IMG/VR virus record: IMGVR_UViG_2687453424_000001
From: a virus
Lineage: Duplodnaviria; Heunggongvirae; Uroviricota; Caudoviricetes
Reading direction: 5' to 3' (one strand)
DNA length: 64,000 bases
Translations under genes and position numbers: made by a program
The notes under the pieces: generated by a model
The model's database searches: none
Told to the model about the DNA's origin: nothing
Seen by the model: the letters and a program-made list of their open reading frames with translations, nothing else
Shown: in pieces, positions 12,043-64,000 of the stretch
Numbering within the stretch: position 1 is the stretch's first letter
Layout: each line of letters opens with the position of its first letter

Positions 12043-12124
12043 CCTGCGAGGGGTCACAGCTCAGCCTGGGCAATGGAACAGGGCATCACGGCCACCGACG
12101 AGAAGTGAAGAGTGACCGACATTG

Positions 12125-28680: not shown

Positions 28681-28757
28681 TTAGGGTTCTCTGCTGGGTT
28701 AGGGTTAGGGTTAGGGTTTTAGGGGGTTAGGGCGTTAGGGGGTTAGGGCGTTAGGGT
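28681..28757 (+). repeat. Short degenerate (TTAGGG)n tract abutting vector sequence
   Basis: ttagggtt...gttagggttagggttagggttttagggggttagggcgttagggggttagggcgttagggt, immediately followed by lambda cos-fragment sequence. Confidence 0.8.
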
Positions 28758-29106
28758 AAAAAGCTCGCTTTCAGCACCTGTCGTTTCCTTTCTTTTCAGA
28801 GGGTATTTTAAATAAAAACATTAAGTTATGACGAAGAAGAACGGAAACGCCTTAAACCGGAAAATTTTCATAAATAGCGAAAACCCGCGAGGTCGCCGCC
28901 CCGTAACCTGTCGGATCACCGGAAAGGACCCGTAAAGTGATAATGATTATCATCTACATATCACAACGTGCGTGGAGGCCATCAAACCACGTCAAATAAT
29001 CAATTATGACGCAGGTATCGTATTAATTGATCTGCATCAACTTAACGTAAAAACAACTTCAGACAATACAAATCAGCGACACTGAATACGGGGCAACCTC
29101 ATGTCC
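28758..29106. other. cos: Bacteriophage lambda cos fragment of a cosmid/BAC vector (joined left and right lambda ends; cosN at ~28890-28901), followed by a SacI-NruI-SacI-SalI linker at 29107-29126
   Basis: Reverse complement of the lambda left end (GGGCGGCGACCTCGCGGGTTTTCGCTATTTATGAAAATTTTCCGG...GCTGAAAGCGAGCTTTTT) joined to the lambda right end (...CCGACAGGTTACG). The right-arm part ends ...ACGGGGCAACCTCATGTCC and is followed by gagctcgcgagctcgtcgac, as in F-based BAC/fosmid vectors. Confidence 0.85.
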
Positions 29107-29349
29107 GAGCTCGCGAGCTCGTCGACAGCGACACACTTGCATCGGATGCAGCCCGGTTAACGTGCCGGCACGGCCTGGGTAACCAGGTATTTTGTCCACA
29201 TAACCGTGCGCAAAATGTTGTGGATAAGCAGGACACAGCAGCAATCCACAGCAGGCATACAACCGCACACCGAGGTTACTCCGTTCTACAGGTTACGACG
29301 ACATGTCAATACTTGCCCTTGACAGGCATTGATGGAATCGTAGTCTCAC

Positions 29350-29435
29350 GCTGATAGTCTGATCGACAATACAAGTGGGACCGTGGTCCCAGACCGATAA
29401 TCAGACCGACAACACGAGTGGGATCGTGGTCCCAG
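29350..29435. repeat. sopC: sopC (parC) centromere-like 43-bp repeats, part before the N-run
   Basis: Units containing the inverted repeat tgggaccgtggtccca spaced by ~43 bp, the F-plasmid partition site. Confidence 0.8.
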
Positions 29436-33845: not shown

Positions 33846-34020
33846 TCTGATTATCAGACCGACGATACGAGTGGGACCGTGGTCCCAGACTAATAATCAG
33901 ACCGACGATACGAGTGGGACCGTGGTCCCAGACTAATAATCAGACCGACGATACGAGTGGGACCGTGGTCCCAGTCTGATTATCAGACCGACGATACAAG
34001 TGGAACAGTGGGCCCAGAGA
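33846..34020. repeat. sopC: sopC (parC) 43-bp repeats, part after the N-run
   Basis: Three to four units of cagaccgacgatacgagtgggaccgtggtcccagactaataat. Confidence 0.85.
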
Positions 34021-34105
34021 GAATATTCAGGCCAGTTATGCTTTCTGGCCTGTAACAAAGGACATTAAGTAAAGACAGATAAACGTAGACTAAAACGTGG
34101 TCGCA

Positions 34106-35077
34106 TCAGGGTGCTGGCTTTTCAAGTTCCTTAAGAATGGCCTCAATTTTCTCTATACACTCAGTTGGAACACGAGACCTGTCCAGGTTAAGCACCATTT
34201 TATCGCCCTTATACAATACTGTCGCTCCAGGAGCAAACTGATGTCGTGAGCTTAAACTAGTTCTTGATGCAGATGACGTTTTAAGCACAGAAGTTAAAAG
34301 AGTGATAACTTCTTCAGCTTCAAATATCACCCCAGCTTTTTTCTGCTCATGAAGGTTAGATGCCTGCTGCTTAAGTAATTCCTCTTTATCTGTAAAGGCT
34401 TTTTGAAGTGCATCACCTGACCGGGCAGATAGTTCACCGGGGTGAGAAAAAAGAGCAACAACTGATTTAGGCAATTTGGCGGTGTTGATACAGCGGGTAA
34501 TAATCTTACGTGAAATATTTTCCGCATCAGCCAGCGCAGAAATATTTCCAGCAAATTCATTCTGCAATCGGCTTGCATAACGCTGACCACGTTCATAAGC
34601 ACTTGTTGGGCGATAATCGTTACCCAATCTGGATAATGCAGCCATCTGCTCATCATCCAGCTCGCCAACCAGAACACGATAATCACTTTCGGTAAGTGCA
34701 GCAGCTTTACGACGGCGACTCCCATCGGCAATTTCTATGACACCAGATACTCTTCGACCGAACGCCGGTGTCTGTTGACCAGTCAGTAGAAAAGAAGGGA
34801 TGAGATCATCCAGTGCGTCCTCAGTAAGCAGCTCCTGGTCACGTTCATTACCTGACCATACCCGAGAGGTCTTCTCAACACTATCACCCCGGAGCACTTC
34901 AAGAGTAAACTTCACATCCCGACCACATACAGGCAAAGTAATGGCATTACCGCGAGCCATTACTCCTACGCGCGCAATTAACGAATCCACCATCGGGGCA
35001 GCTGGTGTCGATAACGAAGTATCTTCAACCGGTTGAGTATTGAGCGTATGTTTTGGAATAACAGGCGCACGCTTCAT
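34106..35077 (-). CDS. sopB: F-plasmid partition protein SopB (ParB), 323 aa
   Basis: Full-length ORF whose translation I recognise as F SopB ([22 protein letters not shown]...). The start overlaps the sopA stop by 1 nt (taATG), as in F. Confidence 0.95.
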
Positions 35078-36252
35078 TATCTAATCTCCCAGCGTGGTTT
35101 AATCAGACGATCGAAAATTTCATTGCAGACAGGTTCCCAAATAGAAAGAGCATTTCTCCAGGCACCAGTTGAAGAGCGTTGATCAATGGCCTGTTCAAAA
35201 ACAGTTCTCATCCGGATCTGACCTTTACCAACTTCATCCGTTTCACGTACAACATTTTTTAGAACCATGCTTCCCCAGGCATCCCGAATTTGCTCCTCCA
35301 TCCACGGGGACTGAGAGCCATTACTATTGCTGTATTTGGTAAGCAAAATACGTACATCAGGCTCGAACCCTTTAAGATCAACGTTCTTGAGCAGATCACG
35401 AAGCATATCGAAAAACTGCAGTGCGGAGGTGTAGTCAAACAACTCAGCAGGCGTGGGAACAATCAGCACATCAGCAGCACATACGACATTAATCGTGCCG
35501 ATACCCAGGTTAGGCGCGCTGTCAATAACTATGACATCATAGTCATGAGCAACAGTTTCAATGGCCAGTCGGAGCATCAGGTGTGGATCGGTGGGCAGTT
35601 TACCTTCATCAAATTTGCCCATTAACTCAGTTTCAATACGGTGCAGAGCCAGACAGGAAGGAATAATGTCAAGCCCCGGCCAGCAAGTGGGCTTTATTGC
35701 ATAAGTGACATCGTCCTTTTCCCCAAGATAGAAAGGCAGGAGAGTGTCTTCTGCATGAATATGAAGATCTGGTACCCATCCGTGATACATTGAGGCTGTT
35801 CCCTGGGGGTCGTTACCTTCCACGAGCAAAACACGTAGCCCCTTCAGAGCCAGATCCTGAGCAAGATGAACAGAAACTGAGGTTTTGTAAACGCCACCTT
35901 TATGGGCAGCAACCCCGATCACCGGTGGAAATACGTCTTCAGCACGTCGCAATCGCGTACCAAACACATCACGCATATGATTAATTTGTTCAATTGTATA
36001 ACCAACACGTTGCTCAACCCGTCCTCGAATTTCCATATCCGGGTGCGGTAGTCGCCCTGCTTTCTCGGCATCTCTGATAGCCTGAGAAGAAACCCCAACT
36101 AAATCCGCTGCTTCACCTATTCTCCAGCGCCGGGTTATTTTCCTCGCTTCCGGGCTGTCATCATTAAACTGTGCAATGGCGATAGCCTTCGTCATTTCAT
36201 GACCAGCGTTTATGCACTGGTTAAGTGTTTCCATGAGTTTCATTCTGAACAT
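35077..36252 (-). CDS. sopA: F-plasmid partition ATPase SopA (ParA), 391-aa ORF
   Basis: Translation matches F SopA, including the deviant Walker A motif ([19 protein letters not shown]). The annotated start may be the internal Met 3 codons downstream (MKLMETLNQ). Confidence 0.95.
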
Positions 36253-36559
36253 CCTTTAATCATTGCTTTGCGTTTTTTTATTAAATCTTGCAATTTACTG
36301 CAAAGCAACAACAAAATCGCAAAGTCATCAAAAAACCGCAAAGTTGTTTAAAATAAGAGCAACACTACAAAAGGAGATAAGAAGAGCACATACCTCAGTC
36401 ACTTATTATCACTAGCGCTCGCCGCAGCCGTGTAACCGAGCATAGCGAGCGAACTGGCGAGGAAGCAAAGAAGAACTGTTCTGTCAGATAGCTCTTACGC
36501 TCAGCGCAAGAAGAAATATCCACCGTGGGAAAAACTCCAGGTAGAGGTACACACGCGGA

Positions 36560-36830
36560 TAGCCAATTCAGAGTAATAAACTGTGATAATCAACCCTCAT
36601 CAATGATGACGAACTAACCCCCGATATCAGGTCACATGACGAAGGGAAAGAGAAGGAAATCAACTGTGACAAACTGCCCTCAAATTTGGCTTCCTTAAAA
36701 ATTACAGTTCAAAAAGTATGAGAAAATCCATGCAGGCTGAAGGAAACAGCAAAACTGTGACAAATTACCCTCAGTAGGTCAGAACAAATGTGACGAACCA
36801 CCCTCAAATCTGTGACAGATAACCCTCAGA
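36560..36830. promoter_or_regulatory. incC: incC iteron region of the F replicon (RepE-binding direct repeats)
   Basis: Repeated tgtgaca(a/g)a(c/t)(t/c)(g/a)ccctca(a/g) elements between sopA and repE (e.g. tgtgacaaactgccctcaaat, tgtgacaaattaccctcag, tgtgacgaaccaccctcaaat, tgtgacagataaccctcag). Confidence 0.75.
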
Positions 36831-37900
<1,070 letters not shown>

Positions 37901-38359
37901 GTTTTTTCAGGCATCGTGTGTAAGCAGAATATATAAGTGCTGTTCCCTGGTGCTTCCTCGCTCACTCGAGGGCTTCGCCCTGTCGCTCGACTGCGGCGAG
38001 CACTACTGGCTGTAAAAGGACAGACCACATCATGGTTCTGTGTTCATTAGGTTGTTCTGTCCATTGCTGACATAATCCGCTCCACTTCAACGTAACACCG
38101 CACGAAGATTTCTATTGTTCCTGAAGGCATATTCAAATCGTTTTCGTTACCGCTTGCAGGCATCATGACAGAACACTACTTCCTATAAACGCTACACAGG
38201 CTCCTGAGATTAATAATGCGGATCTCTACGATAATGGGAGATTTTCCCGACTGTTTCGTTCGCTTCTCAGTGGATAACAGCCAGCTTCTCTGTTTAACAG
38301 ACAAAAACAGCATATCCACTCAGTTCCACATTTCCATATAAAGGCCAAGGCATTTATTC

Positions 38360-38810
38360 TCAGGATAATTGTTTCAGCATCGCAACCGCATCAGACTCCG
38401 GCATCGCAAACTGCACCCGGTGCCGGGCAGCCACATCCAGCGCAAAAACCTTCGTGTAGACTTCCGTTGAACTGATGGACTTATGTCCCATCAGGCTTTG
38501 CAGAACTTTCAGCGGTATACCGGCATACAGCATGTGCATCGCATAGGAATGGCGGAACGTATGTGGTGTGACCGGAACAGAGAACGTCACACCGTCAGCA
38601 GCAGCGGCGGCAACCGCCTCCCCAATCCAGGTCCTGACCGTTCTGTCCGTCACTTCCCAGATCCGCGCTTTCTCTGTCCTTCCTGTGCGACGGTTACGCC
38701 GCTCCATGAGCTTATCGCGAATAAATACCTGTGACGGAAGATCACTTCGCAGAATAAATAAATCCTGGTGTCCCTGTTGATACCGGGAAGCCCTGGGCCA
38801 ACTTTTGGCG
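38360..38810 (-). CDS. resD: Tyrosine site-specific recombinase ResD (labelled redF in BAC vector maps), C-terminal ~150 aa only; N-terminus lost in N-run
   Basis: Visible translation ...VTPHTFRHSYAMHMLYAGIPLKVLQSLMGHKSISSTEVYTKVF... carries tyrosine-recombinase box II (HxxR) and the catalytic Tyr context; its position beside ori2 fits the F/BAC backbone. Confidence 0.8.
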
Positions 38811-41800: not shown

Positions 41801-43161
41801 NNNNNNNNNNNNNNNNNNNNNNNNNNNNNNNNNNNNNNNNNNNNNNNNNNNNNNNNNNNNNNNNNNNNNNNNNNNNNNNNNNNNNNNNNNNNNNNNNNNN
41901 NNNNNNNNNNNNNNNNNNNNNNNNNNNNNNNNNNNNNNNNNNNNNNNNNNNNNNNNNNNNNNNNNNNNNNNNNNNNNNNNNNNNNNNNNNNNNNNNNNNN
42001 NNNNNNNNNNNNNNNNNNNNNNNNNNNNNNNNNNNNNNNNNNNNNNNNNNNNNNNNNNNNNNNNNNNNNNNNNNNNNNNNNNNNNNNNNNNNNNNNNNNN
42101 NNNNNNNNNNNNNNNNNNNNNNNNNNNNNNNNNNNNNNNNNNNNNNNNNNNNNNNNNNNNNNNNNNNNNNNNNNNNNNNNNNNNNNNNNNNNNNNNNNNN
42201 NNNNNNNNNNNNNNNNNNNNNNNNNNNNNNNNNNNNNNNNNNNNNNNNNNNNNNNNNNNNNNNNNNNNNNNNNNNNNNNNNNNNNNNNNNNNNNNNNNNN
42301 NNNNNNNNNNNNNNNNNNNNNNNNNNNNNNNNNNNNNNNNNNNNNNNNNNNNNNNNNNNNNNNNNNNNNNNNNNNNNNNNNNNNNNNNNNNNNNNNNNNN
42401 NNNNNNNNNNNNNNNNNNNNNNNNNNNNNNNNNNNNNNNNNNNNNNNNNNNNNNNNNNNNNNNNNNNNNNNNNNNNNNNNNNNNNNNNNNNNNNNNNNNN
42501 NNNNNNNNNNNNNNNNNNNNNNNNNNNNNNNNNNNNNNNNNNNNNNNNNNNNNNNNNNNNNNNNNNNNNNNNNNNNNNNNNNNNNNNNNNNNNNNNNNNN
42601 NNNNNNNNNNNNNNNNNNNNNNNNNNNNNNNNNNNNNNNNNNNNNNNNNNNNNNNNNNNNNNNNNNNNNNNNNNNNNNNNNNNNNNNNNNNNNNNNNNNN
42701 NNNNNNNNNNNNNNNNNNNNNNNNNNNNNNNNNNNNNNNNNNNNNNNNNNNNNNNNNNNNNNNNNNNNNNNNNNNNNNNNNNNNNNNNNNNNNNNNNNNN
42801 NNNNNNNNNNNNNNNNNNNNNNNNNNNNNNNNNNNNNNNNNNNNNNNNNNNNNNNNNNNNNNNNNNNNNNNNNNNNNNNNNNNNNNNNNNNNNNNNNNNN
42901 NNNNNNNNNNNNNNNNNNNNNNNNNNNNNNNNNNNNNNNNNNNNNNNNNNNNNNNNNNNNNNNNNNNNNNNNNNNNNNNNNNNNNNNNNNNNNNNNNNNN
43001 NNNNNNNNNNNNNNNNNNNNNNNNNNNNNNNNNNNNNNNNNNNNNNNNNNNNNNNNNNNNNNNNNNNNNNNNNNNNNNNNNNNNNNNNNNNNNNNNNNNN
43101 NNNNNNNNNNNNNNNNNNNNNNNNNNNNNNNNNNNNNNNNNNNNNNNNNNNNNNNNNNNNN
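38811..43161. other. N-run, 4351 nt, between the resD 5' part and the cat promoter
   Basis: Uninterrupted n characters. Confidence 1.
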
Positions 43162-43275
43162 AAATGAGACGTTGATCGGCACGTAAGAGGTTCCAACTTT
43201 CACCATAATGAAATAAGATCACTACCGGGCGTATTTTTTGAGTTATCGAGATTTTCAGGAGCTAAGGAAGCTAAA
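43162..43275 (+). promoter_or_regulatory. Tn9 cat promoter and RBS region
   Basis: Sequence immediately upstream of cat (...ttttgagttatcgagattttcaggagctaaggaagctaaaATG) is the standard cat cassette leader. Confidence 0.8.
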
Positions 43276-43935
43276 ATGGAGAAAAAAATCACTGGATATA
43301 CCACCGTTGATATATCCCAATGGCATCGTAAAGAACATTTTGAGGCATTTCAGTCAGTTGCTCAATGTACCTATAACCAGACCGTTCAGCTGGATATTAC
43401 GGCCTTTTTAAAGACCGTAAAGAAAAATAAGCACAAGTTTTATCCGGCCTTTATTCACATTCTTGCCCGCCTGATGAATGCTCATCCGGAATTTCGTATG
43501 GCAATGAAAGACGGTGAGCTGGTGATATGGGATAGTGTTCACCCTTGTTACACCGTTTTCCATGAGCAAACTGAAACGTTTTCATCGCTCTGGAGTGAAT
43601 ACCACGACGATTTCCGGCAGTTTCTACACATATATTCGCAAGATGTGGCGTGTTACGGTGAAAACCTGGCCTATTTCCCTAAAGGGTTTATTGAGAATAT
43701 GTTTTTCGTCTCAGCCAATCCCTGGGTGAGTTTCACCAGTTTTGATTTAAACGTGGCCAATATGGACAACTTCTTCGCCCCCGTTTTCACCATGGGCAAA
43801 TATTATACGCAAGGCGACAAGGTGCTGATGCCGCTGGCGATTCAGGTTCATCATGCCGTTTGTGATGGCTTCCATGTCGGCAGAATGCTTAATGAATTAC
43901 AACAGTACTGCGATGAGTGGCAGGGCGGGGCGTAA
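43276..43935 (+). CDS. cat: Chloramphenicol acetyltransferase (Tn9 type I CAT), 219 aa
   Basis: Full-length [76 protein letters not shown]...[28 protein letters not shown]. Confidence 0.97.
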
Positions 43936-43947
43936 TTTTTTTAAGGC

Positions 43948-44202
43948 CATAGGCAAGGTGAGTTTACACGCGCCATTGTATATCGCGTTCCTACACGCCT
44001 GCCGGTTGGCGACATCAGCCGGCAACATGAGAATGGAAATGGCGGCGATGGAGAGCCCGAAAACGACGACGAATTTGGGGAAATACGCTTGGTTAGCGTC
44101 GTCCGGGTGCTGGTAATTGACGAGGAGGTAGACATTGAAGAGGAACACTAGGACGCATACGATTATGGCGACGATTACCAGAGCGAGGTTGAAATCGCCC
44201 AT
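43948..44202 (-). CDS. Plant LMBR1-like membrane protein, first coding exon, truncated by the vector junction
   Basis: Minus-strand translation from ATG at 44202..44200 reads MGDFNLALVIVAIIVCVLVFLFNVYLLVNYQHPDDANQAYFPKFVVVFGLSIAAISILMLPADVANRQACRNAIYNGACKLTLPM, which I recall as the conserved N-terminus of plant LMBR1-like proteins. Similarity stops where cat-downstream vector sequence begins (~43946). Confidence 0.6.
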
Positions 44203-45378
44203 CGTTAAAAGCCCTCGACTCGATTCGAATCGAATCGATAGCGGTAGATTCAACAGGAGATTTGAGAAATTAGGGTTTGCTTTTAACCCTTCGAATTTTA
44301 ATTCGAAGAATTTCGTAGATCTGAGCTTTCCTCTGTGTGTGTGTGTTTTTTTGAAAGGGAAAGGGGGGAGGTTGGGCTCCGGTGAGGTGGTTTGTTGAAT
44401 TTTGGGGTTAATTTTGACGTGTTGGAATTAAATGACGTTATTATCCTTGTGAATTGGTTAAATGACGGGTTGAAAATAGCGAGGAAGAGAGTTGCAGATG
44501 GGGTTGAATGTAACATCACCTTATATTCCCGTGACAAGCATCGAACCAGCCTGTCCAAGGCAAGAAGTTGTTTTTTAAAAAAAAAATTTACATGTAAGAA
44601 ATAACGCTATTTGAACTTTTAGACCGCTTTCTTTATCTTTTATTCCCGTAGAGAAATTCTCTCAATTTTGTTCTTTTTTTTTCCTCAAATCTTTTATTGT
44701 TCTTAATTATACCCTTCAATTGATATAAAAAAATAATTAGTAATTCTTTTTAGGTACGTAAGATTGAGATACTATTATGAATGAAAATTCTAGCTCAAGC
44801 TCCTCACATTTTATTAACGAACTCTTAAATTTTAATTTAAAACTAAACAAGTTTTTAATTTTAACAAAGATTTAACTGTCATTAGATTCGATGTTAATTG
44901 ACTTTTTTACTCACATGATATATTACTTGACGAATTAACATGATAATGTGATTGTTGACGTGGCTAAAAAAATATAATGAGTTTGGTCACATTAGTTGCG
45001 CGTGACCTCACCAATTCACTAAATCATATATCATGTGGACAGGAAAAATAATTAATATTGACTCTAATATTGATTAAATTTTTATTAAAATTAAAAGCTT
45101 GTTCGATTTTAAATCAAAATTTAAGAGTTTGTTTGAATGCAATAATTAAATAAATGATGATAGTACGTAAAATGTTTTTAGGATTGAAGCCATAATTTTA
45201 AGACAATATAAGCAACAAGTGTCTTATTTACTCATGTTCTCACCTAAAGACTTTTTTATGTTGTTACTTAGTGCATGTTTGGTTTAACTTTTTTTCAGTT
45301 TATCTATTTATTGAAAGTAAAAGTTAGGCCAAATATAATATTTTGAAAAACTCTTAAAAAAAAGTAACTTTTTTTAAG

Positions 45379-49520: not shown

Positions 49521-52234
49521 CTTCTGTTATTTTAAAAATACAATTAAATTTTTATTTTTATTTCAAAAATATCTTCAATTGTTAAAAATAATTACAATAT
49601 TATTTTTTTTAAAAAATACTTTCTATGATAATTTTAACAAAAATTATAATTTATAAAAAAGAACTTATAAAAAAAATTTACCAAACAACTTTAACTTAAT
49701 TTTAAAAATTATTACTTTTCATAAAAACTTCATAATAGCTTTTATGTTAGAAAAAAGTCAAGTCAAACAAGCTCTTAATTTAATCTTAACAATGGCTTTG
49801 CCTCTATTTGAGCATTAACCACACGTAATGTCATCAAGGGAGAAGAAGTAGTTGCCATTTTGGGCTAGTCATGAATTGAGAAGAGAAGCGTAGCATGAAG
49901 AGTACCTAGCATTGATTGCATTATCAAGCTTATATCTTCATCAGAAACTAAACCCAAATGGCAGAGCAAAACATCAAAATGGGAAGCTTTTTTCCTCATT
50001 TTTTGAATTTCTAGCGCAACCCTTTTCAGAGAACTACTTAGTCATCCTGATATCACCTCCATTTCACCTGTATTTTGTCAGTTCCTTTCATGGCGATGGC
50101 TACAACTTTTTGCACTGCTTCTGTAATGATTCCGAGTAAATAATTATTTGTTGATTATGTACCTTGCTGGTGGTTGGTTTATGTATGATGGAAATCTTAA
50201 TCTTTTCAATTTTCCTGGGAATTTCAGACTGTGACTGTGACCACCATTTCTTTTGATTCTTAATCTATGCCTCATTTGTCAAGAGAAAGAGTTTTCATGC
50301 ATCAGTTGGACCCAGAGTCCTGGATTTAACTTTTAACAGGAACACGTGAAATGATTATATCTTGTCAAATATTTAGACAAAAAGTTATCTCAATTTTGGG
50401 TACAAACTCCTTTCCCTGTATCCTGGAGGACTAGTGGGTAGAGGAGAGAAAGACAGCTGCTTGGTTTTTTTTTTTTTCTTACAATTTCCCCTGTTTTTTC
50501 GTACACGATGCCGCCACAGAGCCTGTACCGAGCTGACAACAACTTTCCATCTACTTCTTGATGAATGACTCTTTTATTCGTTCAATCTTTGCCTTGAATT
50601 GCTTTGCCGGATCTCCCATTCAAATTCTGGGATTGAAACCTGGCAGCAATTCTTTCCTGCCATTACTCTTTGTAGAATAACTCTCCCCGGTAATACCCTG
50701 AATCCATTATTTACTATCCTGGAAGATTGGCTCTATCTGGCAATAGTTTTCTCAAGTTCCAGATTTTCAACTTTCGTTTCTTTCTTTAGCGTTGATCTGA
50801 CAACGTTTCTGTCACTGTCATTCATTCCGATGATGGAGATGGGGAAAAGGGTTAACACCAGATTCAAAATGCAAACATCTAAGACTACGAAATTAATCAA
50901 ACAAGGATTCATTTAGCAGGAACTGGGAAGAACATTAAATGCTGTCTTCAACTTGTAAATTTATACATTGATAAATGAAATCCAAGCAAGTTTTTCACAT
51001 GGATTATGCAGATTGTATATCAGAGAAACTCTTTTCGAGACAGGGCATGTGAAAATCTAGCTGGAAAGCCAAGGGAAAAGCTTTAAAGCTTGATGAATTT
51101 CATCCGGATCTTGTACCACCCTCCCTTGCATAATCCGATAGCCTTCCATCCTTGTCTGAATAAAGATCTGATATCATTACGTTTTACTACCTTCATTTGA
51201 TTATGTCCATCTGCCATTTCCAAACTTGCAAATGAATGTACTCTTCCCTATGATCTTACCCTTTTTCCATTGATGGTGCTTCATCTTTATACTAATAGTT
51301 GATGGCGCTGCTACCAGTCTCCTTTACCCAAGCAACAGATTCAGTTCATTGGCTTCGATTGTTGCTTGCGCCAGTTCTTTGTTAGAGGCTCTAATGAAAT
51401 CCCAACTATTTTAGTTTTATCCGTGCTACTTCTACCGGCGGTTGGACAGTTTTTTCTATGGTCGGAAATTCGCCGGATTAATGCCGCTAATGTATTGATT
51501 AAACCGTATTTAGTTTTCTAACATATGATATTAATTATATGATAACACTCTTTTATCTCATAAATCTCAATTTATCCGTTTTAAACCTTAAATTCCAGAC
51601 TTCTAAAGGTTAGGAATAAAATATCTTTTTGAAAATTATTCGACAACATGACTGTTTTTTAAATATTATTTAAGAACAATTCAATAATTAAGAATAACAA
51701 TAAATACGATAATTATGATTATATTTTTTTATGAAAACAGCATCGATTATTCTTAATTAATATTAATTTTATATGTCATATAAGATTATATAATATCACT
51801 CTTTTATCTCAAAATTTCGGTTCACCCACCTTAAAATTTAAATTCGAAACTTTTAAAAATAGAATTGGGTTTGGAAATTGTTCAAGAGTAATAATCAGTG
51901 ACAGAAACAAATGCCGACAATTATATCTTCCACCAAACCAACGGCGACTATTCAATTCTACCTAACCAAATTTTCGTTTTGACTTTCAACCATCCAATAA
52001 CCTCATGCCACGTCAGAAAGCAACCCCGCATGTAACTACCTTAGCAGATATTAACCGTCACCTCTTCCCGGCTTACTCCAACTACCAGTCGTAGCAAGAA
52101 GAAGAAGACTGATCGGTGAGCTTCCAGTTAACTCCGATTCTTCCACTCTCCTTCATGGACTCTGCTCCCCCAATTCTCCAAACTTCCATTTCTTTAATCC
52201 CTAGCGTCAGGGTTTCCTTCTCGATTTCTCAAAT

Positions 52235-55200
52235 ATGGCGGAGCCAAATCGGAGTTCACCTTCCGCCTCCGCCTCCGCCTCTGCCTCCTCCTCCTCTTCA
52301 TCTTCGTCTTACAGGGAGGATTCAGGCGGTGCGGCCGGGGCGGCGGCGTCGTCTTCGGGTACTTCTTCGCAGGTTCGAGAGGAAGAGGAAGGGCAAGATC
52401 ACGAGTATCGGCAGCATCTGCAGCATTTTCATAACCCTGAGCTAGAGAATCAGCACATTGACCTAGTTTCTTATAGAGGTAACTTATCTGGTTTCGATGA
52501 TTCGTCAACGGTGATTGGAGACGACACGTGGTCTTGCATCATCGTGGTTCTCACTTTTTGGTTTTTCGGTTAGTACCCTTTTCCCCTTTCTCATGAATCG
52601 CTCGTTCTTTACATTTGAAAGTAAAAGCTTTTATCTTATGTTGATTCTTTTCGATTGATTTTCTTTTTGAATCGAACAGTGTCTATGACTTTGATTTTGG
52701 GTGTTTACGGGGCGGTGAATATACGGGTCGGTCCGAATTGTTCCCTTCTACTTCAACCGAATCCTATTTTTGTTCAGAGTGTAAAGGTGATTTGCCTTTT
52801 TCTTTTTTCCTTTCTAATTTTTTGATTCGTTTCATGCTTTTTCTTTAAAGGGAAGGGTGGTTTTTGGGTCTATATCTTATTTGGCTTTGTGTTAGGTTGA
52901 GGAGGTAGATGATACCAAGCCAGGGCTCAAACTATATGGATTTTATAAATCTCCATCTCTTGATGTAGTGACTACCTGGTCTGAAACTCGTACCGCTACT
53001 GTTCAAGCTGATTCTCACAAGGCAAGTTCGGTTTCTTGTTCTGTTTTTTGCTTGAATGTTTTGGTTCTGAACTTGTATTTCATTTCCCAAATTTTTTTTA
53101 TATTATCCAGGAGTGGATTCATTATCTGAACAGGGGCTCTCAAGTTAATATTTCATATAATGTGAACTCAGCAGGCTCCTCTGTTTTCCTTATAATTGCT
53201 CAAGGTATCCTGAAACACTAAAAGCTTTTTCAGAATGTGTTTCTCAAAGAATTATTTTCACAAAGTGTGTGTGGAAATGCTGTAGATTAAGTAATTGAAT
53301 CCTGGGAATCTGATGCTTTAATTCATTTTGTCACATTGCAGGCAGTGAGGGCCTTTCTCAATGGCTTGAGGACCCAACATATCCTAACACCACTTTGTCG
53401 TGGAACATTGTTCGTGGTGAGATGGAAATGCAAAAGTATGAATGTTCTTACTATATAGAGTTTTATGCTGACTTTGATATTACTTTTCGGCAGGAAGTGG
53501 TATGATTCAGCAGGATATATATAGATCTTCAAGTTACTATATTGCACTGGGTAATTTGAACTCAGAGGATGTGGAGGTAATTGAAAAAATTTGACCTGCC
53601 GAGCTTGGTTTGTTGTTTTGGTTCTTTCATTGAAGTTCTGCTAAAATATTTGAGATATTGAGATCAAAACTTCATTGTCTTCTGTTACCAACCTCAGAAA
53701 AGAAACGTTTCATGGTGCTTGTCCCTTTTGATTTGTCAGAATTGATATTATGATATGATTGAAGAATCGGATTAACTTACTAAGAAAGGGTTACTTTAAT
53801 CCATTTAAGCAATGCTACATTGTAACTGTGGTGGAAATATTATAAGTGCAGCAATGTCAAGTAAAACTTTGGGCTGAGGAGGGTGTTTATTTCTGCAAGG
53901 CTGCAGTTATAGAAGTATAGGAATCTATAATATGGATTGACATTTTTATGGTAAACATGAGAACATAAATGCTGCAAGTCTCAATTTACTTTAAAAGTTT
54001 GTATGAATGTCAGATGGACTAATGGGCAAAATTGAATAGCCATGGATCCATTTTCCTAACAATTATTTAAGCATATGACTTCAAAATATTAATTCCAAGA
54101 AACTCAGAACCTGCCAAGTCAGGTTTGAGAGGCAGGTATATATAATGGATATCTCAAGTTCAAGTAAATGCGCTGTAGGTGACAAAAAAGCCTATCATTC
54201 TCTCAGATTTCACTGAACCTTTTCTTTTTATTAGATGCTGTTCCCTTGCCCTTTTTTGTGTTCTTTGGTTTCATCTTTTCACATAAAAATTGAGTTGATT
54301 TTAACATTGAACAGGTGGAGTTAAACATCACAGTCAGGGCTTTCATCTACAATACAACTGAAGCTTACTACAGATGTACCTTCGGTAATGGCCTGTGTAG
54401 CTTGAGTGTTTTGTTTCCTCAGGGAAATTCTGTTGTCTTGACTTCTCCAGGTCTAGAACAGGTAAATCTCTTTTTATTTTAAACCTAAATCCTACTTTCT
54501 ATGTCTTTCTTGAGATTATGTCGTTTTGAAGGCTGTTACAGCGGCATTCCTATGTTATTAGGCATGATAAATATATGTTCTAATGCTTCCGTCTGTGCTG
54601 AATAATTTCTTATCTTTTGAAGTGCTATACTGAATAATTTCTAAATCCTGTTTTAGAAAGTCTTTTCATTTTCTGTTCTCCCTCTTTTTGGCTACTTCAG
54701 AGTACATCTGCAGATGACTGGTCTGTCAGATTGTCATATGGACCAAGATGGATTATATATATAGTTGGCATTGGTAAAGTTCTTTCTTTTAATTACTCTA
54801 AATGCGCAACCTTTACAAATGTTTCATGTTTAAATCTTGAATTCTAATTTTCTTCTTAAAGGTGGAATGACAGCAATCATGTTGGTAGCCTTCAACTTCT
54901 TAAACAAGTTCCAATTTACCCGTGGAGGTGAAACAAATCTTCATTATGGGGAGAATGCTTCTGCAAGGGCCCCTCTGCTTTCTAACAAAGATGATGATAT
55001 CTCAAGTTGGGGTTCATCCTACGATTCTGTCTCAAGTGATGAGGCAGATCTTGAAGATTTTCTGGCAGCAGGTTCTGTTGAAGGGACATCAATAAGAGAA
55101 GGTGAAAACAGTAACAATACCCGACGTCTTTGTGCAATTTGCTTCGATGCTCCAAGGGACTGCTTCTTCCTTCCTTGTGGGCACTGTGTGGCTTGCTTTG

Positions 55201-55463
55201 CATGTGGATCTAGGTAACTACTTTGCATCCTCACCTTTTTTACACGAAAGGTTGCTTTGGAAATAGTCTAGCTTCATTCTTAACCCTGCTCCCAATTTAC
55301 AACAGCAGGCTGTTCATCACCCTTAATGGTTCCCAGAACTTGAAATTTGCTCCTATCTGATGTTGTGCTGTAACTGATCTTTTGCAGAATCGCAGAGGCT
55401 GCTGGAACTTGCCCCATTTGCCGTCGGAACATGAAGAAAGTGAGGAAGATTTTCACAGTATAA
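52235..55463 (+). CDS. Plant APD-like transmembrane RING-type (C3HC4) E3 ubiquitin ligase gene, predicted 10 exons, ~488 aa
   Basis: Manual gene model: exons 52235..52568, 52680..52786, 52896..53021 (GC donor), 53111..53204, 53342..53416, 53494..53576, 54315..54461, 54701..54773, 54862..55213, 55388..55463, total 1467 nt in frame. Acceptors are AG and donors GT apart from one GCAAGT. The C-terminus carries RING motif [41 protein letters not shown] split by the last intron; hydrophobic segments and a Ser/Ala-rich N-terminus are present. Individual splice boundaries are less certain than the gene call. Confidence 0.7.
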
Positions 55464-56742
55464 GTCACATTGAGCTCCTTTGCCAGCAGCAGAGCTTGCA
55501 CAGCCTGCCTGCTTCAATGAGTTGCAGTACGTTTTTGATGGGTCACTGCTTTTTATGCTCAAGTAAATGACACTCAGAAGGGGGATTATAAGCATTGATT
55601 TTTTTTAAAAGATGGAAGGAGCCATGCATTTTGTTTCCCTGGATGGCCTTCCACCATGTAATACTATCATCGGTACATAATGTTCGAGTAGACCAAGTCA
55701 AAGCTTCCAATGTAACTCTTTTCATTTCCCCCCCATTGATTACCAATTTAAGGCGCAGCAACTTCAAACTGAGATACTGTACCTTCCTGTCCTTCATTCT
55801 TTGGTATCTTTCAGCCTTCTCAACAGCATCAAGTAAACGACTAATCCAATCCCGTTTTTAATGCTTTTAGAGTATTTCTTACTATATTTTTTAATATTAT
55901 ATTCGAACATTTAATTCAATAATAAATATAAATATCTTTTTATTTAAAAAATAAAGTCGAATCCTTTATTAAAAAAAAAAAGGGTTCGGATGTCTTTTTT
56001 TTTAAATAAATAAAATTCAAATTTAATCAAAACTTAATCAATTTGTTTTATATTACAGTTTTAAAAAACAATAGTAAATCTCATAATAATTATGCATTAG
56101 AATAAAATTAAATATTTAACTGTTTTGATTATAATAAATTAAGGATGAAATGACAGGAGGGAGAAGGAAGATTTGCTTCTTTTTCTTTTTTCCACGAGGA
56201 AGTGGACTGGCGGAAAGAGAGTCAAAGCCATAGTTGACAGAAGTTGCAGTAGACAAGTTCGAGAAGCTTTCCTTTTCCTTTCTCTATTTCCCCCCACCTT
56301 CTGAACGTGGGGATCAAGATAACTATGGCCAACAAGATTGGAAACGAGCGGCGGCCTTCACTGCCTTCCTCCCAGCCTCTTAATATACTTTCTTTTTTCC
56401 CATCCCTGTTTTTGGCCCACCGCTTCTTCAGACCATGGTCATAATCATGACAGTGACATCAAAGTCAAAATTTTATTGTTAATAAAATATAACCTAATGT
56501 TTTTAGTCAACAGATTAATTGAACTAACTTTGACTACTTTATTTAACGAATTGCACAAAATCAACCAAGTTCGAGCTAGTTTATAATTAATTTATTCATA
56601 TTATTAGTTAAATTTAATTAAGTAAAATTGTGATATTTTATAATTTGATTCGAATAAGTTTTAAATTAAAAAATTAGGTTTGGACAATGATCACAAAATA
56701 TTTGTTTTTCGAATTTGATTATAAATGTTATTTTTAATAATT

Positions 56743-59700: not shown

Positions 59701-60502
59701 NNNNNNNNNNNNNNNNNNNNNNNNNNNNNNNNNNNNNNNNNNNNNNNNNNNNNNNNNNNNNNNNNNNNNNNNNNNNNNNNNNNNNNNNNNNNNNNNNNNN
59801 NNNNNNNNNNNNNNNNNNNNNNNNNNNNNNNNNNNNNNNNNNNNNNNNNNNNNNNNNNNNNNNNNNNNNNNNNNNNNNNNNNNNNNNNNNNNNNNNNNNN
59901 NNNNNNNNNNNNNNNNNNNNNNNNNNNNNNNNNNNNNNNNNNNNNNNNNNNNNNNNNNNNNNNNNNNNNNNNNNNNNNNNNNNNNNNNNNNNNNNNNNNN
60001 NNNNNNNNNNNNNNNNNNNNNNNNNNNNNNNNNNNNNNNNNNNNNNNNNNNNNNNNNNNNNNNNNNNNNNNNNNNNNNNNNNNNNNNNNNNNNNNNNNNN
60101 NNNNNNNNNNNNNNNNNNNNNNNNNNNNNNNNNNNNNNNNNNNNNNNNNNNNNNNNNNNNNNNNNNNNNNNNNNNNNNNNNNNNNNNNNNNNNNNNNNNN
60201 NNNNNNNNNNNNNNNNNNNNNNNNNNNNNNNNNNNNNNNNNNNNNNNNNNNNNNNNNNNNNNNNNNNNNNNNNNNNNNNNNNNNNNNNNNNNNNNNNNNN
60301 NNNNNNNNNNNNNNNNNNNNNNNNNNNNNNNNNNNNNNNNNNNNNNNNNNNNNNNNNNNNNNNNNNNNNNNNNNNNNNNNNNNNNNNNNNNNNNNNNNNN
60401 NNNNNNNNNNNNNNNNNNNNNNNNNNNNNNNNNNNNNNNNNNNNNNNNNNNNNNNNNNNNNNNNNNNNNNNNNNNNNNNNNNNNNNNNNNNNNNNNNNNN
60501 NN
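56743..60502. other. N-run, 3760 nt
   Basis: Uninterrupted n characters. Confidence 1.
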
Positions 60503-61171
60503 AATTATTTTAAATTTGAATTTTTATGAATATTGGTAATTAAATTTGAATGTTAAATATATTAATTGAATTCGGGTAAACTATATAATTAAATTTTAAT
60601 GGAATTCGGGCATCTATTTGGTGATATTCTTTAAGTCTTTCTTAAAAAAAAGAAAAACAATTAAGGGCAAATAAAGTACAATTAATTATTTGCCATTAAC
60701 AGCTTAAAATAATCAAATGCGGAGAAAGACTGCTGTGCCGCTACTTCCAACGAATGAATGGAAACCCGCCTTCCCACGTCAGCACACTTTCCCCGAACCG
60801 GGGTTTTCGCATAGCGAAATTGCGTGGCCTCCAACCCTACTATACACTATGTCTGAATCTCCTTTTAAGATTGCTTGAAACCTCTATCTCCACCGTCCGA
60901 TGGAAATATCATTTACCAGGATGAACATCGTAGGCCAAATCAGGAAGAGTGTACGTAAACTAACCCACAGGGTAAGTCTCCTCACTTCCAAGCAAGAACC
61001 ATTCAAAACTCTCGTCTACTTAAACCTATCTCTCGCCACCTTCTCTGCTTCGCCTCTTCTCTCCCAATTCCTTCAATTATCTTCTATTTGGGTTTTGTTT
61101 TTGGATTTTGATCTTTCCATTTGCAAAGGAAAAAAGCTCGTCTCTCTTTCTGTTTCTGTAGCTTTTTGGGT

Positions 61172-62101
61172 ATGGCAGGAACCGGGGTGGTTGCTGTTTA
61201 TGGAAACGGGGCGATAACCGAAACCCACAAGTCTCCTTTCTCAGTGAAAGTTGGGTTGGCGCAAATGCTCCGAGGCGGGGTCATCATGGACGTGGTCACC
61301 CCGGAACAAGCCCGCATCGCTGAAGAAGCGGGAGCCTGCGCCGTCATGGCTCTCGAGCGAGTCCCGGCCGATATCCGAGCTCAAGGCGGTGTGGCCCGAA
61401 TGAGTGATCCACAACTCATCAAGGAAATTAAGCAAGCGGTTACTATCCCCGTCATGGCTAAGGCCCGTATTGGTCATTTCGTTGAGGCCCAGATCCTTGA
61501 AGCCATCGGAATCGATTATGTTGACGAGAGCGAAGTGCTTACCCCAGCCGACGAAGAGAACCACATTAACAAACATAATTTTCGGATTCCTTTCGTTTGC
61601 GGGTGTCGGAATTTGGGGGAAGCGCTTCGGAGGATCCGGGAAGGAGCTGCTATGATTCGAACCAAAGGAGAAGCTGGGACCGGCAACATTATCGAAGCCG
61701 TTAGGCACGTGAGGTCCGTGATGGGAGACATTAGGGTGCTTAGAAACATGGATGATGATGAGGTTTTCAGCTTCGCTAAGAAAATTCAGTCCCCATACGA
61801 TTTGGTCATGCAGACGAAGCAACTGGGGAGGTTGCCCGTGGTGCACTTTGCTGCCGGAGGAGTGGCGACGCCGGCTGATGCGGCGTTGATGATGCAGTTG
61901 GGCTGCGATGGAGTGTTTGTGGGGTCTGGGGTTTTTAAGAGTGGTGACCCGGCGAGACGGGCCCGGGCTATTGTCCAGGCCGTCACTCATTATAGTGACC
62001 CGGACGTGCTTGCTGAAGTTAGCTGTGGGCTTGGTGAGGCTATGGTTGGTCTTAATTTGAATGATAAGAAGGTTGAGAGGTTCGCGGCTCGGTCTGAATA
62101 A
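61172..62101 (+). CDS. PDX1: Plant pyridoxal 5'-phosphate synthase subunit PDX1 (SNZ/PdxS family), intronless, 309 aa
   Basis: Uninterrupted ORF; from [42 protein letters not shown]... to ...VERFAARSE it is near-identical to plant PDX1 as I recall it (Arabidopsis PDX1.3). The track ORF starts 17 codons upstream at 61121, but the conserved start is the Met at 61172. Confidence 0.9.
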
Positions 62102-63817
62102 TGTGTTTGAAGCTTTTCGGGCTACGTGGAGGTGAGAAATTCCACTGTTATTATATTTAATTTTTGTCTTTTTTAAGCGTTTAAGCTTGAAAATTTGATG
62201 GTATATAATGTATTTGATTTTTAAGTTGAATAATTTTTGTCTAGTAGTGAACTTTCTACTGTTCTTTTATTGGTTTTTGTATGTCAAATTTCTGAATTGG
62301 GAAATGGATTGGGTTATTAGCCGTGAATGGGGTATGACTGCTTTGTTTCTCTTTGGTGACATCAATGGTGATTCTTTATGCAAATAGTAAAGCTGCCTGC
62401 TAAAGTGATGAGTTTTTGAGAGATACTTGGCTTTCCTGTTCTTTTCGTATTGTTTACGCATACATAGCTTTGGATTCTACTATACTTTCCCGATTTTCAA
62501 CATAGTTTGGTGACGATTTGGACTGCACCATTTTGATTATAATAAGTTGTTGATGCATTTCATTGAACTTCTACTGTGATGTTTTGTTGTCATATTCTTT
62601 TGTTACAATTTTGAAGTAGTTGGGAGGTAGTGATTGATAGCAAAAGGTGACTTGATGTTACTGGATTTTGACATAAATGATACTACTATAACATGCTTCC
62701 AAAGTGATGCTTGTAGTTAGTTGAGCTTCTGAATGTGAAGTCATTTATTCATTCCTCCCAATTTGTCCACTTGATGCTGGTATATTGGATTTTTGTTGTT
62801 AGTTTTTTGCTTTCTGCCGAATGCTTCATACGTTACTTGCTTTTGATATTTGAGCAATGTTTTGAAGCATTCATCATTGTGGAGAGGTTTTGATTGCCTT
62901 TGCAGGAATCCTTTCACCATGGGACTGGTACCATCGCCTGCATTATGTGCACTTTTTCCAGATTATGCAAGTCAAAAGTGTAGTTTTTGATACAGTGGGG
63001 TGTACCTTTATGTCTAAATGGATGTTTTCGATAAACTCTGCTGTTTCGTTATCTCTTTTAAGATTGCTAGGAATTATAACAGCTTGTCTCTGCATTCTGC
63101 AAGTATACTCATGTAATTTTTCGTTAATTAGGCTCTACAGAAACTTTACCTGCATTTTCAGATGGTATTGGTCCATGGTTTAAGTGGCTTTGCTGGTTAC
63201 CAAATTTTCTTTTTGTTCCATCTTGATGCATGTATGCTATCCTACCTGCTGAATAAAATTTTCCATTACTTGGTCATCTAGCCTGTAATTATTTTTGTTG
63301 CTGGTAGCCCCCTGGTTTTTCCTCCTAGGAGAATCTCCCTGATGAAAAGCATACAAGACTAGTGCATAGACACTTCATATACTGTTTTAATTGAGATGAG
63401 TTATAGCCTTATTTTCAAACCCGAAAACCAGATCTGATCTGAAATTAGCTTGAACCTGAAATGACTTTGAACTTGTAATGTTCTGAATCTATAATTCAAA
63501 ACGATCCAATCTACTTCTTCTAACAGAAATGAGATTCCTACTTTAATAAGCCATTTCTCTCAACTAAACATGTAAACATGTTGTAATTGGGGATGACGGA
63601 CGGAAAGGTGGGTGGGGTTATGTGCTGCTGGTTTTAAACAAGATTTCCCCATTAAAACATGTTGCGAAGAAGAGGCATATGAATTCAATAAAAAGATCTC
63701 AGAACTCTGAAGCTAACATGAGCGAATTACAACAAACAGAAACTTGCTGATTAGCAAGGCTCGTAACTACTTCACAATTAGTAAAAACTTGAGCAGAAAC
63801 GACTCTAGCTCCTCAAA

Positions 63818-64000
63818 TTACTCTTTGCCCACGGCTTGTAAGAGAAGGAGCAATTGAAAAAAGTAGTACGAAGCACCCCCAAGCGTAGCATATTGCAACT
63901 TTTCAGGTCCTTCCACTTCCGGGAAATCACCATCTGCAGCACGATTGAATCCTCCGGCCAACCACCCCAAGTTCTTGTATCCTCCCTCGTATAACTTTGA
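63818..64000 (-). CDS. Possible 3'-terminal coding exon of a plant gene running off the window edge (rhodanese-like C-terminus?)
   Basis: Minus-strand frame open from the window edge to a stop at 63820..63818: SKLYEGGYKNLGWLAGGFNRAADGDFPEVEGPEKLQYATLGGASYYFFQLLLLLQAVGKE*. Resembles the end of a rhodanese-like domain followed by a hydrophobic tail; weak recollection only. Confidence 0.3.
   Translation of the reverse strand, partial: SKLYEGGYKNLGWLAGGFNRAADGDFPEVEGPEKLQYATLGGASYYFFQLLLLLQAVGKE

Follow-up and report, generated by a model that had tools for sequence, protein, structure and literature searches.

In BAC clones of the pBeloBAC11/pIndigoBAC536 type, the insert sits at the polylinker (HindIII, EcoRI, BamHI), and lacZ-alpha, T7/SP6 and loxP are kept at its flanks. 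E. coli deletion derivatives of such clones keep the replication, partition and selection functions and lose dispensable DNA by the cloning site. Mate-pair circularisation junction reads, which come from Roche 454 and Illumina jumping libraries, are blunt fusions with an end-to-start geometry. Vector and cross-species contamination, with its chimeric contigs, is the target of NCBI VecScreen and FCS in draft assemblies.

The stretch of 64,000 nucleotides analysed here (the window) has something in common with each of these. Like a real pBeloBAC11/pIndigoBAC536-type clone, it carries cos, sopC, sopB, sopA, repE, resD and cat, at 100% identity to the reference vector L001 and the BAC clone L009, and its cat lacks the EcoRI site, as does that of L009. 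Unlike such a clone, however, it has no insert at a polylinker and none of the elements that would flank one. With draft-assembly contamination it shares an unscreened vector within a scaffold, the bridging of unrelated taxa by that common vector, low coverage, homopolymer errors and wrong gap sizes, and we see no essential difference from that class; what is unusual is that the vector is chimeric at both of its ends, each time away from the cloning site. Taken as a whole, the window is mosaic: bird DNA comes first, then vector pieces in their proper order that total about 6.6 kb, then colinear cacao DNA (Table 1). Because vector and a cacao sequence cut in mid-exon sit on one scaffold with bird DNA, the window is a contaminated draft-assembly artefact, of sequencing or of assembly, and not biology. 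For the join between vector and cacao at 43947/43948, we put the probability of an artefactual chimeric join, present in no organism's genome, at about 0.93.

Table 1. Positions of bird, vector and cacao features in the window (L001, reference vector; L009, BAC clone; L003, intact cacao locus)
Feature	Position	Strand	Basis
AAGCTT at the very first bases of bird piece 4	20260..20265		resembles a HindIII BAC insert end
Second off-site junction, bird degenerate (TTAGGG)n to vector AAAAAGCTCGC	28757..28758		vector comparison
Lambda-cos fragment and first sopC repeats, vector	28758..29435	+	678/678 identity to L009
Mini-F BAC backbone	33846..38810	-	100% identity to L001 7077 to 2113
sopC repeats	within 33846..38810	-	mini-F backbone
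sopB	34109-35080	-	mini-F backbone
sopA	~35080-36246	-	mini-F backbone
repE	~36834-37589	-	mini-F backbone
resD fragment	38363-38809	-	mini-F backbone
cat promoter and leader, BAC vector	43162..43275	+	100% identity to L009
Intact catA1 (Tn9-type chloramphenicol acetyltransferase) ORF, 219 aa and stop	43276..43935	+	identical to catA1
Final 12 vector nt after cat stop (TTTTTTTAAGGC)	43936..43947	+	reference vector comparison
Chimeric junction	43947..43948		vector L009 8790/8791 replaced by cacao L003 595/596
Codons 1-85 of exon 1 (117 codons intact), cacao LMBR1/LIMR-family gene	43948..44202	-	Pfam and reference locus L003
Cacao 5' UTR and upstream intergenic DNA	44203..45378		L003 851-2030, 99.7%, homopolymer indels only
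Colinear cacao DNA with APD/RING-finger gene	49521..56742	+	L003 2084-9307
Colinear cacao DNA	60503..64000	+	L003 9332-12829, 100% identity
Intronless PDX1	61172-62101	+	exact protein in six cacao-group assemblies

The vector ends just past the cat stop codon

Within the vector part, resD, repE and sopABC are contiguous and in the right order and orientation, and the full-length cat ORF is contiguous with them: the piece that starts at 43162 continues the one that ends at 38810, with a single vector base missing between the two (L001 7077 to 2113, then 2111 to 1326). From 43162 to 43947, a segment comprising the cat promoter, catA1 and the nucleotides that follow its stop codon (43933-43935), identity to the mini-F BAC vector sequence of L009 is 786/786 (100%). 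The EcoRI site of catA1 is lost through a synonymous change of GAATTC to GAATTT at 43494. The original prediction had a short vector-like tail after the cat stop. That tail exists, but it is 12 nt long rather than 11 and ends at 43947 rather than ~43946.

It had also been claimed that the vector is not broken at its polylinker, and this was borne out, since an unbroken clone of this vector type has 365 bp (backbone, lac promoter, M13R and SP6) between the breakpoint position and the HindIII site. Neither loxP, T7, SP6 and M13 sites nor lacZ-alpha nor a polylinker was found anywhere in the window.

A cacao LMBR1-like exon is truncated at the join

From 43948 onward, the window matches chromosome 5 of Theobroma cacao cv. 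Matina 1-6 at 99.7-100%, with homopolymer differences only; at these homopolymers the window is the odd one out against five cacao assemblies. Positions 43948-45378 correspond to L003 596-2030, and the stated identity range holds across the three cacao pieces. The locus lies at 0.82 Mb on Matina chr5 and at 0.74 Mb on Criollo chrV, and the gene order LMBR1(-)/RING(+)/PDX1(+) is the same in six cacao-group assemblies. The naming of the plant, like the finding that the other vector end is joined off-site to bird DNA, goes beyond the original prediction.

The cacao sequence that abuts the vector is the start of a first exon. Read on the minus strand from Met1 (44202-44200), positions 44202-43948 give the 85 codons MGDFNL...ACKLTLPM. 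This fragment matches Pfam LMBR1 (PF04791; E=1.4e-14, 54.4 bits against a cut-off of 31.9) and is 67-84% identical to plant homologues; the corresponding cacao gene, for a membrane protein (512 aa), is annotated with the same family. The exon had been described as cut in mid-sequence at ACKLTLPM, and the comparison with the intact locus agrees, 85 of 117 codons remaining. Past ACKLTLPM the frame runs directly into the reverse complement of cat, and at this point the cacao genome and homologues from lycophyte to angiosperms go on with KDLWLAVYIVDAVLVFFIIPFAMFYYEGDQDK. The possibility that some plant LMBR1-like exon ends naturally here had been raised against the chimeric reading; instead, the intact cacao locus and 11 homologues all extend 32 codons past the break. 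The break likewise lacks a GT splice donor, as had been noted, the natural donor (AA/GTGTGT) being ~95 bp further along in L003. A complete LMBR1 first exon with its donor and downstream gene is absent, and the remainder of the 512-aa gene is not in the window.

The join is blunt and free of homology

At 43947/43948 the sequence passes from one reference to the other within a single phosphodiester bond: vector matches up to 43947 and cacao from 43948, and the two references diverge from the window there (AGTTATTGG... for the vector and ...GAGATCCTT for cacao). The reference vectors carry on with AGTTATTGGTGCCC..., the window carries on with CATAGGCAAGG, and the intact cacao locus reads ...GAGATCCTT/CATAGG at the break. 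Because two unrelated references match at 99.7% or better to the same bond, chance resemblance is excluded. The suggestion that a vector reference might itself contain the plant sequence failed as well: all 835 plasmid records that match the junction query do so at bases 1-786 only, and none (0/835) continues past base 786. The junction 33-mer GCGTAATTTTTTTAAGGCCATAGGCAAGGTGAG is absent from three public contig collections (genome, viral and metagenome), which fits a one-off event but proves nothing, and no record of the junction-spanning chimeric ORF was found. With the exon and the vector records both arguing for it, the original reading of a chimeric join is upheld.

There is no homology at the join (0 bp of microhomology) and no site. 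No restriction site lies at the break, HindIII, EcoRI and BamHI sites are absent within 200 bp of the cacao break, and the nearest GATC ends 3 nt before it. A restriction-site or designed join was rejected, since the break is not a cutting position for any enzyme of defined recognition site, and the zero microhomology led us to reject a microhomology-mediated or template-switch fusion. T-DNA, marker, transposon and adaptor sequences were not found at the join, nor was a circularisation linker remnant; a transposon or sequencing-transposon end, a T-DNA and a 454/Illumina adaptor or linker were rejected on these grounds. A vector variant with its cloning site after cat was rejected because the reference backbones continue identically past the breakpoint.

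These same data bear on whether vector and insert could meet legitimately here, as they would in a BAC or fosmid library or with such a variant vector. Vector does abut genomic DNA, and the insert stays colinear with the cacao genome over 12 kb or more. However, two NEB mini-F plasmids and one BAC clone continue identically for >110 nt past the breakpoint, neither breakpoint, vector or genomic, has a restriction site, the nearest GATC lying 3 nt away, and T7, SP6 and polylinker sequence is absent from the window. A polylinker break, a matching genomic site and polylinker-flanking elements would mark a legitimate junction, and all three are missing; we regard such a boundary as highly improbable.

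A second off-site junction joins the vector to bird DNA

At its other end, 28757/28758, the vector cos region is joined to bird telomere-type repeats. The vector fragment at 28758 starts 68 bp beyond loxP, at a distance of 497 bp from the HindIII site, so that ~870 bp around the vector cloning site is missing and the two joins lie 365 and 497 bp off the site, inside the backbone. To the left of the vector are an avian OR14-like fragment, (TTAGGG)n and a fragment resembling CR1 reverse transcriptase, the last judged by eye (Pfam gave no match). All named matches of the olfactory-receptor fragment are of the avian OR14 type, with the best in kea, at an identity of only ~72-79%. We considered the budgerigar and turkey CABOG/454 assemblies as the bird source, and neither could be tied to the window. 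A literature search for cacao contamination in bird assemblies returned nothing relevant, and an Rfam scan of the window found no RNA families.

Sources unable to share one genome thus meet on a single scaffold: bird sequence (OR14-like, CR1-like and (TTAGGG)n), a BAC vector from E. coli, and part of cacao chromosome 5. This weighs heavily against genuine integration of the vector into a eukaryotic genome, whether in a transgenic or BAC-transfected organism or by natural transfer of a cat-bearing plasmid. Illegitimate integration does typically leave blunt, homology-free joins, and eukaryotic DNA does lie beside a resistance gene here. But the two flanks of the vector belong to different kingdoms, one being bird and the other cacao, six cacao-group assemblies carry the locus unbroken, and T-DNA borders and 35S, nos, nptII, hpt or bar sequences are absent. 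Moreover, the backbone is that of an engineered BAC vector from whose cat the EcoRI site has been removed. Integration seems to us improbable in the extreme.

Origin of the fusion

The two partners, the exact breakpoint, the truncation of exon and vector, the lack of homology or site at the join, the mosaic make-up of the scaffold and its false gap lengths are shown directly; we infer both the step at which the fusion arose and the source of the reads. The vector partner is a mini-F of the pBeloBAC11/pIndigoBAC536 type, cut 12 nt past the cat stop and 365 bp short of HindIII. The cacao and vector sequence most likely derives from BAC-clone reads of low coverage, prone to homopolymer errors and unscreened for vector, which presumably entered one data set or assembly together with reads from bird BACs or bird genomic DNA, where the common vector would have bridged the sources into a bird-vector-cacao scaffold. 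The join itself would then be a blunt fusion of two unrelated ends that arose in the library, as a chimeric molecule made by co-ligation or by circularisation without a linker, and was accepted by the assembler presumably because true reads near the cloning site were missing.

The placement of the breakpoints counts against a plain chimera. Both vector breakpoints fall in the ~870-bp dispensable cloning-site segment, with all replicon and selection functions intact, and two random breaks would both spare these functions with a chance of only ~1.3%, so that either a coverage hole from vector trimming or real, selected deletion clones would be needed. The breakpoints lie off the Tn9, pBR322 and lambda module boundaries, where a match would have favoured a trimming boundary, and the idea that the missing ~870 bp marks such a boundary is unproven.

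Deletion clones would account for this placement. A cacao BAC could have become a deletion derivative by illegitimate recombination in E. coli, losing the vector downstream of cat, the cloning site and the insert as far as the LMBR1-like exon, while chloramphenicol selection preserved cat; the molecule would be real and still a laboratory artefact. The cat ORF is spared by only 12 nt, all replication and partition genes are kept, the orientation suits (cat, then 365 bp, then insert in the intact vector), and the other breakpoint, too, lies in dispensable DNA, the pairing that random breakage would so rarely give. Such deletions usually use short homologies, however, and there is none at this join. 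The second off-site junction with bird DNA would moreover require one data set to contain two rare deleted clones of different species, whereas the vector, as the most abundant sequence, should often turn up in chimeric reads from BAC-pool libraries. We therefore think a deletion derivative unlikely, and give no better odds to its fuller form, a physical fusion in which homology-independent end joining stripped a BAC of its cloning region and some of its insert, with the breakpoint past the cat stop fixed by selection and a similar event in a bird BAC. If that were so, the window would record two selected deletion events, the bird one at a telomere-repeat tract.

The library-molecule origin that we prefer could also take a specific form: the circularisation junction of a cacao BAC mate-pair fragment of ~8-11 kb, read without linker and assembled as contiguous. 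The fragment would run from the exon breakpoint rightwards to the T7-side HindIII insert end, through loxP, cos and sopCBA, and on through repE and resD to end 12 nt past cat. The end-to-start geometry is exact for one BAC-sized circular template, both parts being on the plus strand with the vector in the order cos to cat, and a blunt join with 0 bp of homology is what circularisation should give. In the cacao reference, HindIII sites occur 1.15-3.1 kb rightward of the breakpoint, which implies fragments of 8.3-10.2 kb, but such sites are frequent here, so the fit in size is weak evidence, and no BAC end is known there. On the bird side there would be a mirror-image fragment: bird piece 4, upstream of the bird junction, begins with AAGCTT, which looks like a vector-trimmed HindIII BAC insert end. 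Against this, no linker remnant is present, the implied span exceeds the 3 kb of the published cacao paired-end library, and circularisation alone fails to explain why the breakpoints flank the cloning site. We hold this form to be doubtful.

The gap lengths also show that mate-pair spans were mis-specified in this assembly, in keeping with a circularisation library. The N runs of the window are 3760-4410 long where the true gaps are 1-215 bp, an overstatement of ~4 kb; the gap before 49521, for example, is 53 bp in truth and 4142 in the window, and that before 60503 is 24 bp against 3760. We rejected the idea that the N runs mask real sequence, since in the references no more than those 1-215 bp lie between the flanking pieces.

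Consequences and probable source

The matter is one of data hygiene only, and no new biology is to be expected from it. The scaffold nevertheless sets a functional chloramphenicol-resistance gene, an F-plasmid replicon and 14 kb of cacao DNA beside bird DNA, and if left in a public assembly it invites false calls of horizontal gene transfer, of a eukaryotic resistance gene and of a truncated or fused LMBR1-like gene. The region from 28758 to at least 64000 deserves a contamination flag, and the gap lengths of the scaffold are not to be trusted.

BAC libraries of Matina 1-6 were built in pIndigoBAC536 (PMC3173454), and 27 BACs, covering ~3 Mb at distal LG5, were sequenced from 454 linear and 3-kb paired-end libraries (PMC3154204). 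The LG5 BAC assembly was made with CABOG, and the region aligns to the first 3.5 Mb of Criollo Tc05 (PMC3154204). The cacao locus of the window falls inside this ~3-Mb chromosome-5 interval of the published pooled BAC/454 project, which is probably the source of the contamination; the link is circumstantial, drawn from where the locus lies, the genotype, the lineage of the vector and the kind of errors seen. A contaminant traceable to one specific 3-Mb cacao interval is unusual for draft assemblies, and the cacao LG5 BAC pool in pIndigoBAC536, as the probable source, gives curators a concrete screen.

The junction joins BAC vector to cacao genomic DNA

The join at 43947/43948 fuses engineered vector to cacao genomic DNA within a cross-kingdom mosaic scaffold, which bears out the chimeric join proposed in the original prediction. 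On the vector side, the whole piece holding the junction was compared by megablast with 72,556 plasmid records. All 835 records that matched did so only over query bases 1 to 786 (window 43162-43947), which places the end of the vector-like sequence at 43947, 12 nt past the cat stop. A vector-like run reaching from the stop to the break, and the lack of plant-like sequence in vector references, both agree with the prediction; the predicted length of 11 nt, ending at ~43946, does not. After TTTTTTTAAGGC, two NEB mini-F plasmids (L001 and L002) and the BAC clone CP036489.1 continue with AGTTATTGGTGCCCTTAAACGCC, whereas the window reads CATAGGCAAGGTGAG. The vector genes of the window (sopC, sopB, sopA, repE, resD and cat) form a series of single order and orientation.

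CP036489.1 has the identical type of backbone with its cloning region intact. Here the cat-side breakpoint is followed by NotI, the lac promoter, M13R and an SP6-like promoter, with HindIII coming after them at a distance of 365 bp; as anticipated, the vector was not broken at its polylinker. At the opposite vector end, the window's cos fragment starts 497 bp after HindIII, and the stretch between them holds the polylinker, T7, M13F, lacZ-alpha, NotI, loxP and 68 bp of cos. None of the cloning-region elements on either side of HindIII (polylinker, promoters, primer sites and loxP) was found in the whole window. The window thus lacks ~870 bp of vector flanking the cloning site, and each vector end breaks off inside the backbone. 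CP036489.1 differs in carrying an extra 621 bp (oriV-sized) that the window backbone lacks. At 43494, cat has GAATTT for GAATTC, a synonymous change that abolishes an EcoRI site and is common to the window and CP036489.1, in contrast to the NEB plasmids. The change is a lineage marker of EcoRI-compatible BAC vectors, presumably characteristic of the pIndigoBAC536, pECBAC1 and pCC1 lineage.

On the other side of the break, the truncated product matches Pfam LMBR1 (PF04791) above the cut-off, as do all 57 homologues found. Eleven homologues, ranging from a lycophyte to monocots and dicots, were aligned; the ten that share a conserved exon have K-x-LWLAVYIVDAVLVFFVIPFAMFYYEGDQDK after LTLPM, with many ending at residue 117. 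Six assemblies, Matina 1-6 and Criollo cacao among them, encode the exact protein of the intronless PDX1 gene (61172-62098), and their gene order is that of the window: LMBR1 (-), APD/RING (+), PDX1 (+). Against the intact Matina 1-6 locus (L003), the first cacao-aligned base is exactly 43948, to the left of which intact cacao reads ...GAGCCAGAGATCCTT. There the exon reaches codon 117, with its donor (AA/GTGTGT) ~95 bp beyond the break, so the window's copy stops short at codon 85. No splice signal is present at this position, and the reading frame passes straight into the reverse complement of cat. Both the mid-exon truncation and the absence of a GT donor had been foreseen.

Features of the window and their reference matches
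Feature	Position	Strand	Details
Piece 1	1-1773
Piece 2	6839-8462
Piece 3	12043-14878
Piece 4	20260-21511
Piece 5	21532-22073
Piece 6	27719-29435
Piece 7	33846-38810
Piece 8	43162-45378		2,217 bases; holds cat/LMBR1-like junction
Piece 9	49521-56742
Piece 10	60503-64000
N run	29436-33845		4,410 N; true gap 215 bp of sopC repeats (vector reference)
N run	38811-43161		4,351 N; true gap 1 vector base (vector reference)
N run	45379-49520		4,142 N; true gap 53 bp cacao (cacao reference)
N run	56743-60502		3,760 N; true gap 24 bp (cacao reference)
Homopolymer-length miscalls	44577, 44674, 50465, 55980, 55993, 56736		versus five independent cacao assemblies
Avian OR14-type (gamma-c) olfactory receptor, C-terminal half	1078-1425	+	PF13853
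CR1 reverse transcriptase-like fragment	20532-20978		by eye, no Pfam match
CR1-like 3' end	~27900-28450		by eye, no Pfam match
(GGGTTA)~51 array	21685-22018		vertebrate-type telomere repeat within bird sequence
Mini-F match	29122-29435		L001 7606->7293
Mini-F match	33846-38810		L001 7077->2113
Mini-F match	43162-43947		L001 2111->1326
cat ORF	43276-43935	+	219 aa; stop 43933-43935
LMBR1-like coding fragment	44202-43948	-	MGDFNLALV...NGACKLTLPM, 85 codons
Cacao match	43948-45378		L003 596-2030, 99.7% identity
Cacao match	49521-56742		L003 2084-9307, 99.9% identity
Cacao match	60503-64000		L003 9332-12829, 100% identity
Exact PDX1, Theobroma cacao Matina 1-6			GCA_000403535.1, CM001883.1, 0.82 Mb
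Exact PDX1, Criollo			GCA_000208745.2, LT594792.1, 0.74 Mb

At the join itself two unrelated ends meet bluntly, with 0 bp of microhomology and no base common to vector and cacao. No HindIII, EcoRI or BamHI site occurs in cacao within 200 bp of the break, and the closest GATC ends 3 nt before it. When all commercial enzymes were compared with the three breakpoints, only near-siteless specificities "cut" there. Searches for T-DNA borders, plant markers, IS1, IS10, Tn5, Mu or Tn7 ends, and 454 or Illumina adaptors or linkers were negative. An exact search for the junction 33-mer in GTDB genome contigs, IMG/VR and the JGI metagenome collections found no match, and the 101-aa chimeric ORF across the junction is not on record.

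Bird DNA lies beyond a second vector junction

The window runs from bird through ~6.6 kb of vector to cacao, DNAs that cannot share one genome. The DNA left of the vector is avian, as indicated by the CR1-like stretches, the (GGGTTA)~51 array and the olfactory-receptor fragment. Essentially all of the 120 listed matches to this fragment are avian OR14-type receptors, the best being from kea (~72% identity). The receptor is in frame as a fragment only, possibly reflecting a pseudogene or sequencing errors. A separate 31/42/83-bp tandem repeat occupies 39-262, at the window's left edge. At 28757/28758 (region 28670-28770), CR1-like bird sequence gives way to degenerate TTAGGG repeats, which join directly onto the lambda-cos segment of the vector at AAAAAGCTCGC; intact vector has ...GAGGCC ahead of this sequence. 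The fusion is 497 bp from HindIII and 68 bp past the expected loxP position. Bird piece 4 opens exactly with AAGCTT (HindIII, 20260-20265), for which the chance is ~0.5% over 20 piece ends. This start looks like a vector-trimmed HindIII BAC insert end and suggests BAC-derived reads as the origin of the bird DNA too.

Origin of the mosaic

The window is not continuous but consists of ten pieces separated by N runs. In the four runs measured against vector and cacao references, the excess over the true gap is constant (~3.7-4.35 kb each), and N-run lengths are no measure of distance. Such an excess would fit a scaffolder giving the mates of a short-span library ~4 kb too long a span; the wrong gap sizes suggest a mis-specified mate-pair span at scaffolding. 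The lone 20-N gap (21512-21531) has what we take to be the smallest size written by Celera/CABOG and Newbler. All differences between the window and Matina 1-6 fall in or beside homopolymer runs. At 44674, 55980, 55993 and 56736 the window alone differs from 5/5 independent cacao assemblies, and these errors therefore belong to the window. The pattern is consistent with low-coverage pyrosequencing-type data.

Three Matina 1-6 BAC libraries (HindIII, EcoRI and MboI) were made in pIndigoBAC536 (PMC3173454). At the distal end of linkage group 5, Feltus et al. covered ~3 Mb with 27 Matina 1-6 BACs, sequenced by 454 Titanium from linear libraries and paired-end libraries of 3 kb, with Lucy trimming against the pIndigoBAC536 HindIII splice and CABOG assembly; their pseudomolecule aligned to the first 3.5 Mb of Criollo Tc05 (PMC3154204). 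The window locus, at 0.74-0.82 Mb of chromosome 5, falls within this sequenced interval, which is <1% of the genome. Circumstantially, genotype, vector lineage, position and error type all fit, and this BAC pool is the probable source of the cacao-plus-vector sequence.

We infer that unscreened BAC-derived reads of two projects met in one assembly, where the common vector would have bridged them and a chimeric molecule would have extended each open vector end. That molecule could be an ordinary library chimera of co-ligated fragments. It could also be a fragment of 8-11 kb joined end to start on circularisation, with no linker at the junction. This geometry agrees with both sides, and from HindIII sites located 1.15-3.1 kb to the right of the break, fragment lengths of 8.3-10.2 kb would be expected; but HindIII sites are common, and the cacao library described in the publication was 3 kb. 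Alternatively, it could be a BAC clone that really underwent a deletion and was maintained by chloramphenicol selection. The two vector breakpoints lie within the dispensable ~870 bp and spare cat by 12 nt, for which two random breaks would have a chance of ~1.3%; this otherwise unexplained placement favors the deletion derivative. A coverage hole from trimming around the cloning site would also explain it, although neither breakpoint matches a boundary between vector modules. All three are laboratory or computational artefacts. The junction is not a biological feature, and the stretch should be handled as vector and cross-species contamination.

Vector sequence in records filed as bacterial plasmids

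CP036489.1 is filed as "Rahnella aquatilis plasmid pMEM40-2" (49,310 bp). It holds a full vector of BAC/fosmid type (cat, resD, repE, sopABC, cos, loxP, lacZ-alpha and T7/SP6) and a ~41-kb HindIII insert with sparse, fragmented annotation (TIR domain, AAA ATPase and DUF3458 split over five CDS). The record resembles a BAC clone of eukaryotic, probably plant, DNA that was deposited as a bacterial replicon. The cos-sopC vector segment is also present in NZ_CP104070.1, a 39.8-kb Alicyclobacillus "plasmid".
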